Assembly: GCA_964355175.1 (NCBI GenBank)
Contig: CAYHBZ010000001.1
Span: forward strand, 505,400 to 550,381
Reading direction: 5' to 3'
Length of the DNA: 44,982 nt
Source: an uncultured Gammaproteobacteria bacterium
Lineage (GTDB): Bacteria > Patescibacteriota > Patescibacteriia > Magasanikbacterales > GWA2-37-8
The notes beneath the pieces are model-generated. The model was given only the letters and a program-made list of their open reading frames with translations. It ran no database searches and had not been told where the DNA came from. The translations under genes were made by a program, and so were the position numbers. Positions 8,783-27,521 of the stretch are shown piece after piece (within the stretch, counting starts at the first letter, position 1; every line of letters begins with the position of its first letter).

Positions 8783-9427
8783 TTATTTCTTCAATTTTGC
8801 CCAATCATCCAAAAAGGTTTTAATACCAATATCGGTCAGAGGATGTTTAAACAATTGCTGTAAAACTTTAAAAGGAATAGTAGCCACCTGCGCGCCAGCC
8901 ACAGCCGCCTTTTGTACAGTGAGCGGACTACGGATAGAAGCTACCAAAATCTGCGAAGCAAAATTATAATTTTTAATTATAGCTACCGAGTCGGCAATCA
9001 TTTGCATTCCATCATCACCAATATCATCGAGGCGGCCAACAAACGGACTAATATAAGTAGCCCCTGCCTTGGCCGCTAGCAACACCTGATTGGCGGAAAA
9101 TACCAAAGTAACATTGGTTTTTATACCCAATTTTTTCACTTCTTTTACGGCTCTTAGGCCATCTGGAGTACAAGGAATTTTCACCACCACATTTTTGTGC
9201 CAAGTAGCCAATTCCTTGGCTTCTTCAATCATTTTATCGGCCTCGAGCGATATTACTTCAGCACTTACCGGACCATCTACAATATCGCAAATCTCCAGAA
9301 CTACCTGTTTGAAATCACGACCTTCTTTGGAAACAAGACTAGGATTGGTAGTCACACCATCCACCAAGCCCCAAGCGTGGGCGGTCTTAATTTCTTCAAT
9401 ATTGGCGGTATCGATAAAAAATTTCAT
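8783..9427 (-). CDS. Transaldolase / fructose-6-phosphate aldolase family (short TalC/Fsa type)
   Basis: [33 protein letters not shown] and [10 protein letters not shown]. The start is taken at MKFF (9427). Confidence 0.9.
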
Positions 9428-9454
9428 GTTATTGGTAATTATTTTAATATACAA

Positions 9455-9483
9455 ATAATAGCTGATTATAAAAATATTGGCAA
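9455..9483 (-). promoter_or_regulatory. Candidate promoter for the transaldolase gene (TTGCCA-17-TATTAT)
   Basis: Hexamers read on the minus strand at 9483-9478 and 9460-9455, with a 17-nt spacer. Confidence 0.4.
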
Positions 9484-9494
9484 GAAAAGAATTA

Positions 9495-9530
9495 AAAACA
9501 TCCCGACTTTAATCGGGATGTTTTATATTT
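9495..9530. terminator. Bidirectional intrinsic terminator (aaaacatcccga...tcgggatgtttt)
   Basis: 12-bp stem flanked by an A-run and a T-run. Confidence 0.65.
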
Positions 9531-9531
9531 T

Positions 9532-9560
9532 TTGGATCGCTCGCATCTTATAAATACAAT
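9532..9560 (+). promoter_or_regulatory. Candidate promoter TTGGAT-17-TACAAT pointing into the GC-rich island
   Basis: Hexamers at 9532-9537 and 9555-9560. The ORF-track start at 9532 is a TTG that coincides with the -35 box. Confidence 0.35.
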
Positions 9561-9978
9561 TTTTATATCTACAAGACGAGAGCGAGGATCCAAAGATACT
9601 GCACCGTCTGCCGAGTTACCCCAGCATACCTTTTTCAAGGCGGATCACGAATACGCACGCGGACCTCCTTTATTCCTCACCAACGAAAGCGAGAAACTGA
9701 TAGAACAACTCGATGTGGAGAGGGCGGCCCAGCGAAGGAGCGCCGAACGTGAAGATGTCGAGCAGATGCATGGCGTCGAACCTTCCGTCCGTCGCACGCC
9801 CCTTGGCTTCAGCGGCGATTTGCCGCCTGAGATCTTCAGAAACATTCCCGAAAGACTCATGATCGAGGAGGTGATCGAGAGCCGCGAGGAAATCTTCGAG
9901 AATTCGCACAAAATAGAAATTCAAGGCATGCCTTCTTGCCGTTGGGCGGTTGGTTGTCTGTGCGTACATATACACTAA
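9532..9978 (+). CDS. Candidate ORF in the GC-rich island (hypothetical, E/R-rich)
   Basis: Open frame, but with a TTG start and no in-frame ATG before 9768, and no Shine-Dalgarno. A plus-strand promoter and a weak downstream hairpin support this orientation. Confidence 0.25.
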   Translation: MDRSHLINTIFISTRRERGSKDTAPSAELPQHTFFKADHEYARGPPLFLTNESEKLIEQLDVERAAQRRSAEREDVEQMHGVEPSVRRTPLGFSGDLPPEIFRNIPERLMIEEVIESREEIFENSHKIEIQGMPSCRWAVGCLCVHIH

Positions 9979-9985
9979 AAAAACG
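9560..9985. other. Compositionally anomalous GC-rich island; coding strand unresolved
   Basis: There is an abrupt rise in G+C. My hand count over about 112 codons gives roughly 60% at codon position 3 and 63% at position 1 of the plus-strand frame. Both flanks are AT-rich. Terminator hairpins lie on both sides (9495-9530 and 9981-10001). Confidence 0.7.
9670..9969 (-). CDS. Candidate ORF in the GC-rich island (hypothetical, 99 aa, helical-looking)
   Basis: This is the codon-for-codon antisense of the plus ORF (MYAQTTNRPTARRHALNFYFVRILEDFLAALDHLL...). The longer track ORF to 10053 runs through tRNA-Leu, so I trimmed it. There is no SD and no room for a promoter after the tRNA terminator. Confidence 0.25.
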   Translation of the reverse strand: MYAQTTNRPTARRHALNFYFVRILEDFLAALDHLLDHESFGNVSEDLRRQIAAEAKGRATDGRFDAMHLLDIFTFGAPSLGRPLHIELFYQFLAFVGEE

Positions 9986-10026
9986 ATCTTGTCAATCGTT
10001 TTCGTGGTTTTTGTTAAATTAAATTG

Positions 10027-10107
10027 TGCCTGGGAGAGGACTTGAACCTCCACGCCTTACGGCACGGGCTTCTAAGACCCGCGTGTATACCATTTCACCA
10101 CCCAGGC
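10027..10107 (-). tRNA. tRNA-Leu (anticodon UAG), class II with long variable arm; CCA not encoded
   Basis: Cloverleaf folded by hand. Acceptor GCCTGGG/CCCAGGC, anticodon loop CTTAGAA, 13-nt variable arm, T-loop TTCAAGT. Confidence 0.9.
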
Positions 10108-10196
10108 TAATATGGCCATATTTAACCATATTCTTTTTAAAAAAACAAGACTAAACAAAAAAACCCGATTAAATCAGGATTTTCTGTCCAACCAAC

Positions 10197-11417
10197 TTAT
10201 AGTTTATTTACAAAATCTTTATAACCAAAAGTTTTTACCACTTTATATTTTCCTTTTTTATCCAGAATACCGATATTTGGCAACGGGATACCATTGAAAG
10301 TGGTATTTTTTACAAAGGTATAGAGAGCCATGTCGGTAAATAAAAGCTTTTGTCCCGGCTGGATAGGAGCATCAAAAGAATAATCTCCAAAAGTATCACC
10401 GGCCAAACAAGACGGACCACCGATACGATAAAGATTTTTCTTTACCGGGCCCTTGGCAGCATCGATGATGCAAGGCTGATAAGGCATACCAAGCACATCC
10501 GGAGTATGAGTTTCAGCCGAAGCGTCCACGATAGCCACATGGCCTTTATTTTCAATAATATCCAGGACAGTGGTAGCAAAATAACCAGCATTGAGTACTA
10601 CACCTTCGCCCGGTTCCATATAAACCTGAATTTTATATTTTGATTTTAAATTTTTAATCAAACGAATAAGCAAGTCAAGTTTATAATCTTTCCTAGTCAC
10701 ATGATGGCCGCCACCAATATTGACCCATTTTAATTTTGGTAAATATTTACCAAAATCAGCTTCAAATTTTTTCAAAACTTCTTCCAGAGAATCAGCGTCT
10801 TGTTCGCACAGAGCATGAAAATGAAAACCATCAATAAGAGAAAGATCTTCACCTTTAAATTGTTCAGCAATCACACCCAAACGAGATTTAGCCACACATG
10901 GACTATATAAAAGCTTTGGGGATTTAGACAACATTGGATTAATGCGCAAACCCACTTGCTTGCCGGCTTTCTTTACCATCGCCGCGTATTTACGAACTTG
11001 GTTAAAAGAATTAAAGATAACAGTGTCAGAATATTTTATGACATCTTTAATATCTTTGTCGGTAAAAGCTGGCGAAAAGGTATGAACTTCTTTTTTGAAA
11101 TCTTCGCGACCCAGTCGAGCTTCGTAGATTCCGCTGGCACAGGCACCATCTAAATATTTGCCAATTAGAGGAAAAGTAGCCCGCAAAGAAAATGCCTTTA
11201 GGGCAATTAAGATTTTACAGCCGGTTTCATTTTTTACTTTTTTCAAAATCTTTAAATTCTCTTCGAGCACTGCTTCGTCGATAATATAAGCCGGTGTTTG
11301 AATATTTGCGGTTTGTTTTACAACATCACGCAAATGATTCAAAGTAACATGCGAAGGAAAAGTAAAATAAGAATCTGGAAATTTGTATTCATTTTTCATA
11401 AAATATTTTATTCCCAT
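10197..11417 (-). CDS. nspC: Carboxynorspermidine/carboxyspermidine decarboxylase
   Basis: PLP-dependent fold-III decarboxylase. Contains TPAYIIDEAVLEENLKIL, LKAFS, NIGGGHH and GPSCLAGD, and sits next to CANSDH. An alternative start is MKNEYKF at 11399. Confidence 0.85.
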   Translation of the reverse strand: MGIKYFMKNEYKFPDSYFTFPSHVTLNHLRDVVKQTANIQTPAYIIDEAVLEENLKILKKVKNETGCKILIALKAFSLRATFPLIGKYLDGACASGIYEARLGREDFKKEVHTFSPAFTDKDIKDVIKYSDTVIFNSFNQVRKYAAMVKKAGKQVGLRINPMLSKSPKLLYSPCVAKSRLGVIAEQFKGEDLSLIDGFHFHALCEQDADSLEEVLKKFEADFGKYLPKLKWVNIGGGHHVTRKDYKLDLLIRLIKNLKSKYKIQVYMEPGEGVVLNAGYFATTVLDIIENKGHVAIVDASAETHTPDVLGMPYQPCIIDAAKGPVKKNLYRIGGPSCLAGDTFGDYSFDAPIQPGQKLLFTDMALYTFVKNTTFNGIPLPNIGILDKKGKYKVVKTFGYKDFVNKL

Positions 11418-12655
11418 TTAACTTCTGGCACATCAGCGCCAAATACTTCCACCCAAGGTAGACCGTCAGTCATGAGGGCTTGCATAAATGGCTCTGGATT
11501 CATTTGCTCTACATTGAATACACCTGTTCCCTGCCATTCTCCTTTGAGAATCATCTTGGCCCCAATCATTGGCGGCACACCGGCAGTATAGGAAATACCC
11601 TGAGATTCAGTTTCGCGATAACACTCGGCGTGATCGCAGATATTATAGATATAATAAGATTTTGGTTGATTATTTTTATCCAAACCTTTGATAATACAAC
11701 CAATATTTGTCTTACCAGTATAATTCTTGGCAAGTGAGGCTGGGTCTGGTAATAATTTTTCTAACAATTTAATCGGCACAATTTTTGTACCATTATAATC
11801 CACTTCATCAATACGAGTCATGCCGACATTTTGCAATACGCGCAAATGAGCTAGATATTGTTCGCCAAAAGTCATACCAAAAGTAGCTACTTTCAAAGTT
11901 GGAAAATTTTTGACCAAAGACTGCAATTCCTCATGATAGAGAAGATAAGTTTCTTTTGGTCCGATCTCTGGATAGTTGAAAGCAAAATGATAATCAGGAC
12001 GAGAAGCTAATGGACTAATAATCGGACCCACATCCACCCACTGACCATCTTTCCAAAACTTAGCCGAAGAACCAACTTCGCGTATATTTATTTCCGGACT
12101 AAAATTAGTGGCAAAAACATGACCATGATCACCGGCATTACAATCCATGATATGCAATTCGTGAATTTCATTGAAATATTTTTTGGCGCCGTAAGCGGTC
12201 ATAGCCTGGGTCACGCCCGGATCAAAGCCGCAGCCAAGCACCGCTATCAAGCCGGCTTCTTTAAATTTATCACTCATCGCCCATTGCTCATCATAGCGCA
12301 TACGAGCTTCTTCGATTGGCTCGTAGTTCGCGGTATCGACATAATTCACTTTAGCTTCCAAACAAGCTTCCATCACAATCAGATCAAAATATGGATCAAC
12401 CAAATTGATAAGAATATTTGGACGAAGCTCCTGGAGCAAACGCACCAAATCGGTTTTGTCTGTCATGGTCACTGTCACGGCCGCGGTCTTAATAGTCGTG
12501 CCAGTTAATCTTTTAGCGGCCTCAGCAATACGATCGCATTTTGCCAGCGTACGACTAGCCACAATAATTTCATTAAAAACTTCCGGCTGTTGAGCACACT
12601 TAATGGCAGTAACTTTGGCTACACCACCGGCACCCAAAATGAGAACCTTGTTCAT
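11408..12655 (-). CDS. Carboxynorspermidine synthase/dehydrogenase (saccharopine dehydrogenase family)
   Basis: Rossmann N-terminus MNKVLILGAGGVA. Length and context are typical of CANSDH. The start is taken at 12655, not the 18-codon upstream extension. Confidence 0.85.
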   Translation of the reverse strand: MNKVLILGAGGVAKVTAIKCAQQPEVFNEIIVASRTLAKCDRIAEAAKRLTGTTIKTAAVTVTMTDKTDLVRLLQELRPNILINLVDPYFDLIVMEACLEAKVNYVDTANYEPIEEARMRYDEQWAMSDKFKEAGLIAVLGCGFDPGVTQAMTAYGAKKYFNEIHELHIMDCNAGDHGHVFATNFSPEINIREVGSSAKFWKDGQWVDVGPIISPLASRPDYHFAFNYPEIGPKETYLLYHEELQSLVKNFPTLKVATFGMTFGEQYLAHLRVLQNVGMTRIDEVDYNGTKIVPIKLLEKLLPDPASLAKNYTGKTNIGCIIKGLDKNNQPKSYYIYNICDHAECYRETESQGISYTAGVPPMIGAKMILKGEWQGTGVFNVEQMNPEPFMQALMTDGLPWVEVFGADVPEVKWE

Positions 12656-12725
12656 AGATAATTTAATTAAAATGATTGCTAAATTTAAATAAATTTTACA
12701 CACTAACAATCATAGTGTCAATATA

Positions 12726-12863: not shown

Positions 12864-12921
12864 GTTTCCCTCAACCCCTGGGCTAGGGGCAGAAGACACC
12901 AAGATTGAAAAAAGAGGATCC

Positions 12922-13704
12922 ATGAACACGCACTTCCATATCAACGATCAAGGCTTCTTCGTCCCGACGGCCGAAATCAAGGGAGAAACGCTACCTGGCA
13001 ACGAGGACATCGACATCACCCAGGCTGGCGGTATCCAGGCGACTCTCCACCCCATCTTCCACCGTATCAAGGAGTCGTTTCCGCACTCGATGAACTTCGG
13101 CACGTTGGCAGAGTTCGAAGAACGTACCCGTTGGCTCAAGCGGCGACTGGGCGAGGAAGACGAGTACCGCAAACTCGCCAACGGTGTCTGCCTGCCGCTC
13201 GTACTGGGTCAGTACACGTCGACCAATCTAGGCTCCAACCTGGAGAAAACGTTCATCGCGTCTGCGGCACGATCGTACTGTCTGGATTTTCCGGGCCGCG
13301 AACTCGTGAACTACCGCAAGGGCAAGCTGGCCGACATGGTGGAGATCGTCGAAGGCACTCGTCACGATCGCGTGATCGCGAAGATGGCCGAAAGTCCGGT
13401 CTACGCGTTGTACTTCCCGTACGCGCTGTTGGGCTGGTCCATCCCGGCCGATCGCGAACTGATCGCCATGTTGCCCGAAAACTTCGCGCTGACGGGTGGC
13501 ATCGACACCGCCACGGCTTTGGCTGGCTACAGCTACCTGTTGGCCAGCAACTACCGCAAGCCCACCTTGGACTGCGCGGCAATCTGCTGGGACAACCCCA
13601 ACCGGTCGCTGTTCTTTCGTCCCGACGACGACGAACTCGTCTTCGACCGTGGTCGGCTCAGTGCCGACGAGAACTACGCGGGCGGTCTCCTGTACCTCGG
13701 GTAG
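12922..13704 (+). CDS. Orphan hypothetical protein (260 aa) with foreign high-GC codon usage
   Basis: ATG is preceded by AAGAGGA 4 nt upstream. GC3 is about 75% by hand count over the first 72 codons. No motif I recognise. The overlapping ORFs in other frames are typical high-GC shadows. Confidence 0.8.
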   Translation: MNTHFHINDQGFFVPTAEIKGETLPGNEDIDITQAGGIQATLHPIFHRIKESFPHSMNFGTLAEFEERTRWLKRRLGEEDEYRKLANGVCLPLVLGQYTSTNLGSNLEKTFIASAARSYCLDFPGRELVNYRKGKLADMVEIVEGTRHDRVIAKMAESPVYALYFPYALLGWSIPADRELIAMLPENFALTGGIDTATALAGYSYLLASNYRKPTLDCAAICWDNPNRSLFFRPDDDELVFDRGRLSADENYAGGLLYLG

Positions 13705-13787
13705 CGTCGGCCAGTCGACGTAGTGGTTTTTTTGACAACTATGTTCAGCACTAAGTCGTTCGCGATTTGGTGTCAAACTCTTACCTC

Positions 13788-13825
13788 CACGACCGGGCCC
13801 AACAGCCCGGTCGTCGTGTTTTTAT
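13788..13825 (+). terminator. GC-rich intrinsic terminator (cgaccgggc...gcccggtcg + T-run)
   Basis: 9-bp GC stem followed by tcgtgttttt. A weaker hairpin plus T7 lies at 13706-13733. Confidence 0.75.
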
Positions 13826-27031: not shown

Positions 27032-27445
27032 CTATGGTGCTCCAGTGAGACCAGTAGCGGAAGAAAGCTGAGTAATGACAAATGAGGCCAAAGCGTAAGC
27101 GGACAAAATAATGGCTAGACCGATAATACCGGAGAAGATCCATTTTTTTGCTTCGCCAACCTGGTCTTCGTTGCCACCGGCAGTCATCCATTTGAAACCA
27201 CCTACCAAGATGATTACTACGGCTACGATACCGAGCAAGCCCATGGCTACGCGGATAATAGAAGCGATTGTGGAACGTACATCAGTACTTCCCAAACCGA
27301 TAGAAGCGCCGTAACTTAAACCTAAGTCTTTGGCTTCCATAACACCTGAGGTCGTGATAGCGCTTGCGGACAATGGACCAAAAGCGGCCAATGCCAACAA
27401 TAAAATAGCGGATAACGACAAACTAGTTGCTAAAATCTTTTTCAT
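27032..27445 (-). CDS. VirB2/TrbC-like pilin paralog P5 (shortest; no Cys module; candidate major subunit)
   Basis: KWMTAGGNEDQVGEAK loop. A strong GGAGGTG Shine-Dalgarno lies 6 nt before the ATG at 27445. It has its own TGtTATAAT extended -10 at 27485-27493. Confidence 0.8.
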   Translation of the reverse strand: MKKILATSLSLSAILLLALAAFGPLSASAITTSGVMEAKDLGLSYGASIGLGSTDVRSTIASIIRVAMGLLGIVAVVIILVGGFKWMTAGGNEDQVGEAKKWIFSGIIGLAIILSAYALASFVITQLSSATGLTGAP

Positions 27446-27521
27446 AATGTCACCTCCTTCCAAAATGTTGTTTTCATATCAAATATTATAACACAATCCA
27501 ATTTTTTAAGCTACATTATTT

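Follow-up and report, generated by a model that had tools for sequence, protein, structure and literature searches.

The stretch analyzed here, referred to as the window, covers 44,982 nt of contig CAYHBZ010000001.1 (positions 505,400 to 550,381), and our subject is a GC-rich island within it, located between a tRNA-Leu(UAG) gene and a gene for a transaldolase/fructose-6-phosphate aldolase (8783-9427; Pfam TAL_FSA, E = 1.7e-63). These genes, the island, and a carboxynorspermidine-decarboxylase-like gene on the other side of the tRNA (10197-11417) are all on the minus strand. The 3' end of the tRNA gene adjoins the island, as a reading made from the sequence alone had proposed, and the hairpins said to bracket the island are present (10002-9980 and 9524-9495), together with a long hairpin at 9591-9534. 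The island itself is real, but the G+C content of about 60% given by this sequence-only reading was too high. It is 51.6% for 9560-9985 and 54.6% for 9600-9960, reaching 57 to 57.5% in the richest 200-nt intervals, and the mean of the whole window is 40.7%. The insert measures ~540 bp, from the tRNA 3' end (10025) to ~9486, just before the -35 hexamer of the transaldolase promoter. Our best explanation, which taken as a whole we consider probable, is that the island is a single-gene accessory cassette, running from promoter to terminator on the minus strand, of a small group of Candidatus Magasanikbacteria. Confidence is high for the description of the gene and of the cassette, and the taxon fits the names of the transaldolase relatives. 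An ambiguous GC-rich patch thus becomes a transcription unit with a defined strand, start, stop, and boundaries.

Misassembly is excluded because independent contigs are identical to the window and the depth is the same as in the flanks. Two studies (runs X1, X2, and X3) supplied Logan contigs covering 9200-10061 with zero differences. Coverage was checked for discontinuities and showed no break, the depths on either side of the tRNA being 13.5 and 13.9, 13.4 and 11.5, and 9.66 and 8.81.

The relatives used for comparison are the contigs encoding the closest homologs of the window's transaldolase protein. Four of these metagenome contigs (L001, L002, L009, and L012; transaldolase 93 to 95% identical) carry the same insert, hereafter type A, and all four encode gapless orthologs of 84 or 81 amino acids (aa), with 43 to 51% aa identity to the window protein and 28 residues invariant among orthologs. 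The version of L012 has 81 codons. Between the window and L001, the central 255 nt align without gaps at only 60% identity, whereas the flanks are much more alike. Differences between the window and its relatives are in excess at third codon positions (30/30/42, 27/26/53, and 29/24/46 for the first, second, and third positions). The ratio of nonsynonymous to synonymous substitution rates (dN/dS, Nei-Gojobori) is 0.2 to 0.35. The ratio of the corresponding proportions of differences (pN/pS) is 0.38 to 0.52 in all three pairs for the minus frame, versus 0.87 to 1.24 when the antisense frame in the same register is read, and the antisense translations share only 30 to 32% identity across lineages.

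The minus frame 9924-9670 is under purifying selection. We place the gene there because the sense frame is under such selection, the antisense frame is not, and the extension to an upstream ATG at 9969 is closed. This settles the coding strand, which the sequence-only reading had left unresolved: its small-gene option holds on the minus strand, while the ATG at 9969 and the plus-strand open reading frames (ORFs) do not stand as a gene. In L001 and L009 a TAG as the fourth codon ends the frame from ATG 9969, and the ORF begins at an ATG aligned with the window's TTG at 9924. ATG 9969 itself falls within the candidate -10 hexamer. The plus ORF (9532-9978, 148 aa) is, as had been noticed, in exact codon register with the minus ORF ending at 9670, and it is a shadow ORF. 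What keeps the antisense frame open in every lineage is the absence of TTA, CTA, and TCA codons from the sense frame. A third, Ser-rich ORF was also rejected, being interrupted in relatives. The features of the cassette and its borders are listed in the table.

Table. Features of the cassette and of the slot that holds it, in the order of the minus strand (window coordinates)
Feature	Position	Strand	Evidence and remarks
tRNA-Leu(UAG)	10026..10107	-	ARAGORN; Rfam tRNA, 56.6 bits; its 3' end bounds the variable slot on the left
Weak terminator hairpin of the tRNA, AAAACGAU-UGACAAG-AUCGUUUU plus U run	9980..10002	-	Read from the sequence; loop holds the cassette -35 hexamer
Candidate promoter, TTGACA (9995-9990)-17-TATATG (9972-9967)	9967..9995	-	Inferred from conservation
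Small hairpin in the 5' untranslated region (UTR)	9938..9949	-	GNRA loops in relatives: GCCG-GUGA-CGGC, GCCG-GCAA-CGGC
Ribosome-binding site, AAGAAGG	9931..9937	-	6 nt upstream of the TTG start
Coding sequence (CDS), 84-aa acidic all-helical orphan protein	9670..9924	-	TTG start, TAA stop; orthologs, pN/pS, third-position excess
Perfect Shine-Dalgarno (SD) site, AGGAGG	9664..9669	-	Directly after the CDS stop
Mini-ORF, GTG CGT ATT CGT GAT CCG CCT TGA (M-R-I-R-D-P-P-stop)	9635..9658	-	5 nt after AGGAGG
GAAA-tetraloop hairpin, GCCUU-GAAA-AAGGU (helix 4)	9628..9641	-	Pro-stop end of the mini-ORF forms its 5' arm
Hairpin, UGCUGGG-GUAA-CUCGGCA, 7 bp (helix 5)	9609..9626	-	Next helix abuts its 3' end
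Long hairpin, ~25 bp: 20-bp main helix plus GGAUC/GAUCC base (helix 7)	9534..9591	-	
Intrinsic terminator ending the cassette	9495..9524	-	Scan match, 13 pairs plus U run
Transaldolase promoter, TTGCCA-17-TATTAT	9455..9483	-	Scan match 10/12; also in empty-site L003; right boundary of the slot

The protein is acidic (isoelectric point of 4.9 in the window and 4.1 to 5.1 across lineages), and an AlphaFold2 model built from the four-sequence alignment is all-helical, with a mean predicted local distance difference test score (pLDDT) of 81.5 and a predicted template modeling score (pTM) of 0.75. No frame matched Pfam, PADLOC, PHROGs, NCBIfam, or the PDB sequence profile. Foldseek searches against PDB and viral models found no fold match (best E values of 1.8 and 0.31, template modeling scores below 0.5), and a look-up of the 99-aa called product returned no record. 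A word-indexed search of 5.8 billion clusters and an exhaustive HMMER profile search of 1.84 billion representative proteins recovered as homologs only three variants from the cassette itself. The protein evolves fast: dN is 0.44, versus 0.036 to 0.042 in the adjacent transaldolase (~12-fold), with dS saturated in both. This fast evolution, the acidity, and the patchy presence of the gene are more in keeping with an accessory factor for interaction or protection than with housekeeping.

The slot between tRNA-Leu(UAG) and the transaldolase gene occurs in three states among the relatives. Besides the type A insert of the window and of the four contigs above, the slot is empty in L003, where a tRNA-Leu with 100% identity is followed by a different terminator and then by the transaldolase promoter, the whole distance from tRNA to gene being ~130 nt. 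Contigs L004 and L005, both of which begin inside the tRNA, are consistent with an empty slot. In type B (L006-L008, L010-L011, and L041-L043), the position directly upstream of the transaldolase gene is taken by an unrelated gene, rich in GC and encoded on the opposite strand, and in L006-L008 the tRNA is farther off, with an EamA-type gene in between. The insert is therefore present or absent between the same conserved neighbors in close relatives, as is characteristic of an autonomous accessory cassette, and this small genome exchanges tiny accessory genes at a fixed slot.

The type B genes (all on the minus strand of their contigs: L010, 3641-3862; L007, 4631-4909; L041, 119-337; L042, 464-685; L043, 836-1060) encode a Cys-rich, zinc-ribbon-like protein of 73 to 75 aa with the C terminus ...GPGS-H-CVG, whose matches to zinc-ribbon Pfam families are below threshold. 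This protein is 44 to 70% identical between strains with transaldolases more than 90% identical, and the G+C content at third codon positions (GC3) of its genes is 0.66 to 0.72. The polyamine genes beside the slot also vary (L003, 1-4012, and L006/L007, 830-3954, versus 10197-12709 in the window). In these relatives, with transaldolases 91 to 92% identical, an ornithine/arginine decarboxylase and an S-adenosylmethionine decarboxylase/spermidine synthase replace the carboxynorspermidine dehydrogenase/decarboxylase pair of the window, and L003 additionally carries an arginase-family gene. The polyamine route adjoining the slot thus seems to differ between strains. A second variable slot lies between the transaldolase and Smr genes, where L001 (3857-4624) and L009 (4144-4911) carry a 255-aa gene without Pfam match that is absent from the window. 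An extra 136-aa gene follows Smr in L010 (4926-5336).

The position of the island at a tRNA 3' end, its G+C content above the surroundings, and its lack in some relatives speak for a recent import, or for the remnant of an element integrated at tRNA-Leu, both of which the sequence-only reading had suggested. Nevertheless, no integrase is encoded between the tRNA and the transaldolase promoter, where only the 84-aa ORF and shadow ORFs without Pfam match are found, and when 9500-10030 was compared with the window by sensitive blastn, the distal boundary showed no copy of the tRNA 3' end. The island had no blastn match in phage and plasmid collections and no homolog in other organisms. The composition argues against such an origin as well. 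The GC3 of the minus frame, put at 63% in the sequence-only reading, was closely reproduced at 0.61, and the cassette has values of 0.61 in L001, 0.65 in L009, and 0.56 in L012, against 0.33 to 0.39 in the matching transaldolase genes. Synonymous sites between cassette lineages are largely turned over (pS of 0.64 to 0.83), and high GC3 kept through saturated synonymous change must therefore be an equilibrium property of the gene, not the residue of a recent import. We consider an imported or remnant origin very unlikely. The composition is actively maintained, with a GC3 of ~0.6 in a genome where it is ~0.35, so atypical composition is here not a sign of recent import. The other GC-rich island of the window has a GC3 of 0.79. 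No repeat of the cassette was found anywhere in the window, including 12870-13825, and the template/variable repeat pair of a diversity-generating retroelement is accordingly missing there. Lineages differ from one another at every codon position, with a pN/pS below 1, unlike the adenine-specific pattern of such retroelements.

The cassette carries candidate expression signals of its own. The sequence-only reading had found no room for a minus-strand promoter after the tRNA terminator, and this objection falls: a perfect TTGACA lies in the loop of that terminator, 17 nt before TATATG, and the arrangement is conserved in all relatives with the cassette (TTGACA-17-TATATG in L001 and L009, TTGACA-17-TATACA in L012). 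A consensus scan did not list this candidate promoter because its -10 hexamer lacks the usual final T. The hairpin holding the -35 hexamer is a weak terminator, likewise unlisted by the scan because it has only two G-C pairs. It is kept in L001, L009, and L012, and a different terminator is present in the empty and type B relatives. As for translation, L001 has AAGG 6 nt upstream of its ATG.

The island is transcribed, since a 242-nt metatranscriptome contig, which is unstranded, matches 9610-9851 with one mismatch. It comes from the same sample as a DNA run holding the locus. Besides the island, the first 40 kb of the window are represented in that metatranscriptome only by 23S rRNA and five other segments. 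The best-represented mRNA of the window is that of a pilin-like gene (27032-27463, minus strand; 143 aa, TrbC/VirB2-like by eye), with a 478-nt contig at a depth of 34.8. The other GC-rich island (ORF 12922-13704) is matched by a 267-nt contig at 13230-13496 with a depth of 3.5, which may reflect true expression or a GC bias of the library, and most AT-rich genes are absent.

The part of the transcript that follows the CDS, hereafter the tail (9669-9495), is conserved in a different way. Between the window and L001 it differs by 3 to 7% per 60-nt interval, a range that holds across 9438-9617, and it is ~95% identical, versus 60% for the CDS. For the neighboring transaldolase codons 1-72, pS is 0.39 in the same comparison. 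The tail is even more conserved than the tRNA, because the tRNA-Leu(UAG) of L001 (2525-2610) differs from that of the window in the anticodon stem and in the long variable arm, while the cassette tail is nearly identical. A noncoding tail is thus under far stronger constraint than the protein preceding it. The minus-strand RNA of 9525-9672 has a fold z score of -6.0, and its L012 counterpart has one of -5.1. The consensus structure, in which compensatory changes back four hairpins, counts 60 pairs with 98.7% pairing. Both sides are changed in ten of these, versus 2.5 ± 1.4 in shuffles (10 is reached in 0 of 500) and no more than 3 when partners are slid. Nearly all this covariation comes from one lineage, L012. 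There, the closing pair of the GAAA hairpin is G-C instead of G-U, two pairs of helix 5 are compensated (C-G to U-A and G-C to A-U) and two changed on one side, and seven pairs of the terminator are compensated. The terminator looks bidirectional. The 20 pairs of helix 7 are 98.8% paired, with one compensated. This helix contains the TTGGAT-17-TACAAT string (9532-9560) that had been read as a plus-strand promoter; the string exists, but it belongs to a conserved hairpin and is ACGGAT-17-TACAAC in L012. No Rfam family reached the gathering threshold in 9400-10120, and at E ≤ 10 only the tRNA and spurious hairpin matches were found, the best sub-threshold match merely following the long hairpin.

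These data also bear on the suggestion that the whole ~420 nt might be a noncoding structured RNA, or else a plus-strand gene. The idea of a structured RNA holds for the last ~175 nt, given their fold and compensated pairs, and fails for the coding part. The minus strand does fold better than shuffles in the window (z = -3.06, with -0.20 for the plus strand), and the 148-aa plus ORF is open. Against this, there is no Rfam match, and conserved structure in the CDS was rejected, since its z score is -3.1 in the window but +0.35 in L001 and +1.08 in L012. For the plus strand, the high antisense pN/pS, the low identity of the antisense translations, the loss of the promoter string in L012, and the weak fold all point away from a gene, and we regard both versions as most improbable. 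A more restricted alternative takes the ~175-nt 3' RNA as the functional product, a small RNA or a cis element, with the 84-aa frame as a weakly constrained passenger. The contrast in identity between tail and CDS and the dN of 0.44 in the CDS favor it. The sense pN/pS in three pairs, the gapless 84- or 81-aa orthologs with their 28 invariant residues, and the confident helical model obtained from just four sequences make it unlikely, even though these counterpoints may be compatible with a dual-function RNA.

The tail begins with a second potential translation unit, made up of the SD site and the mini-ORF. AGGAGG is kept in L009 and L012 and is GAGG in L001. The mini-ORF of L012 reads ATG TGC AAG CGC GAT CCG CCT TGA (MCKRDPP*): compared with the window, the start is kept through a GTG/ATG change, the Arg codon is changed synonymously, and neither the stop nor any residue of the four final sense codons differs. 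The core is Arg-Asp-Pro-Pro (RDPP) in all lineages. The mini-ORF is a separate ORF and not a read-through extension, because its frame relative to the main CDS differs among lineages. Fusion to the main ORF by read-through or by frameshifting was rejected on this ground. Across the whole window, the genome is strikingly poor in SD sites. AGGAGG occurs 7 times on both strands of the 45 kb, versus 15.2 ± 3.8 in shuffles, and only 2 of the 7 precede a start codon, those of the mini-ORF and of the pilin-like gene. No 4-nt SD core precedes the first ATG in 34 of the 36 ORFs of at least 150 aa. RDPP is reported to be a partly arrest-permissive variant of the arrest motif RAPP in ApdA/ApdP mutants and to belong to the tetrapeptides that bacterial proteomes avoid most strongly (PMC12992588).

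In the mechanism that we propose for this arrangement, transcription would start from TTGACA-17-TATATG, overlapping the tRNA terminator, or would reach the cassette when this weak terminator is read through. The seven-codon mini-ORF would then be translated by ribosomes that come off the main ORF or load at AGGAGG, and these could pause at Arg-Asp-Pro-Pro/UGA, sitting on the base of the folded 3' domain. The state of translation would thereby be coupled to the fate of the mRNA 3' end, that is, to its stability or to terminator read-through into the transaldolase gene. Pausing on the mini-ORF is a tentative proposal, to which we give somewhat less than an even chance. A broader version would make the M-x-x-R-D-P-P-UGA frame a minimal arrest sensor placed after the gene, a "ribosome trap" setting the stability or read-through of exchangeable GC-rich orphan cassettes in Magasanikbacteria; this is speculative and rather doubtful.

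Several observations weigh against the account given here. There are only three independent lineages, and the statistics of selection and covariation rest mostly on L012. The candidate -10 hexamer TATATG lacks the canonical final T, and the evidence for transcription is one unstranded assembled contig from one run, whose recovery GC bias may have favored. As for the mini-ORF, chance alone would put one R-x-P-P-stop into 45 kb, read in six frames, in about half of cases (~48 of 100 shuffles). The layout of SD site, 5 nt, start, two codons, and RxPP-TGA was found in no Candidate Phyla Radiation (CPR) genome among 185,579 species representatives. Exact-pattern scans of genome, metagenome, and viral contigs for a conserved 23-mer, an 18-mer, and the SD/mini-ORF layout gave zero or chance-level matches, none of them in CPR. 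When the structures were inspected for another pairing through which ribosome stalling might open the terminator, none was seen. Finally, the nascent chain would have only 6 residues at the putative stall point, which is shorter than any characterized RAPP-type peptide.

The chance count and the lack of a homologous layout elsewhere in the pattern scans, together with the overlap of the invariant codons with helices 3 and 4, agree with an explanation in which the mini-ORF is untranslated. The segment AGGAGG...CCGCCUUGA would then be conserved only as RNA, as an arm of the GAAA hairpin and the base of the 3' domain, the tail would be a stabilizing or terminating 3' UTR, and RDPP would be coincidental. 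On the other hand, a perfect AGGAGG 5 nt before a start is very rare in this SD-poor genome, the sole other case being the most highly expressed mRNA seen, and neither the GTG/ATG change of the start nor the synonymous Arg change is demanded by the predicted helices. This explanation is a serious possibility, although we would not expect it to prove correct.

If the mini-ORF stalls ribosomes, it would offer a very small and readily testable system for studying arrest at a nascent chain of six residues, and a hint at how accessory genes are controlled in ultra-small bacteria. Should the broader sensor proposal be true, this would be the shortest natural RAPP-like arrest peptide and, if one module is common to such cassettes, an undescribed class of 3'-terminal translation-sensing element.

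Among known systems, the RAPP-type arrest peptides (ApdA, ApdP, ApcA, and CruR; SecM with RAGP) resemble the mini-ORF in having a short ORF that ends in Arg-x-Pro-Pro beside an RNA structure. Their defining core is Arg-Ala/Gly-Pro-Pro, whereas here it is Arg-Asp-Pro-Pro, the partly permissive variant of the ApdA/ApdP mutants (PMC12992588). They are also longer, usually have a localization signal, and lie upstream of the gene that they regulate, while the mini-ORF has 7 codons, comes after the cassette's single gene, and has hairpins and a terminator behind it. It is separated from the transaldolase gene by a full intrinsic terminator and a distinct promoter, in place of the upstream control seen in those systems. 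The 7 residues of MRIRDPP are too few for an N-terminal signal or membrane segment of the kind through which export relieves the arrest, and stalling is in this case a prediction from sequence.

In termination stalling of the TnaC type, a leader peptide ends in Pro, followed by UGA. The mini-ORF recalls this system in its C-terminal Pro and UGA, its very small size, and the RNA signals that come right after it. The mini-ORF differs from TnaC in having no sequence similarity to it, no Trp-sensing residues, and no sign of Rho-dependent control. With tRNA-linked islands and integrative elements, the cassette shares its position past a tRNA 3' end and its variability between strains, and it differs from them in its size of only ~540 bp and in having neither an integrase nor a duplicated tRNA end. 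Phage "morons" are extra genes that bring a promoter and a terminator of their own and are lodged between a pair of conserved genes. The cassette lies outside a prophage, its promoter is a candidate one, and the orthologous cassettes have diverged with their host lineages instead of being freshly acquired. Like a moron, it consists of one gene of atypical composition that has a promoter-like site and a terminator to itself, and close relatives either carry it or lack it between the same flanking genes.

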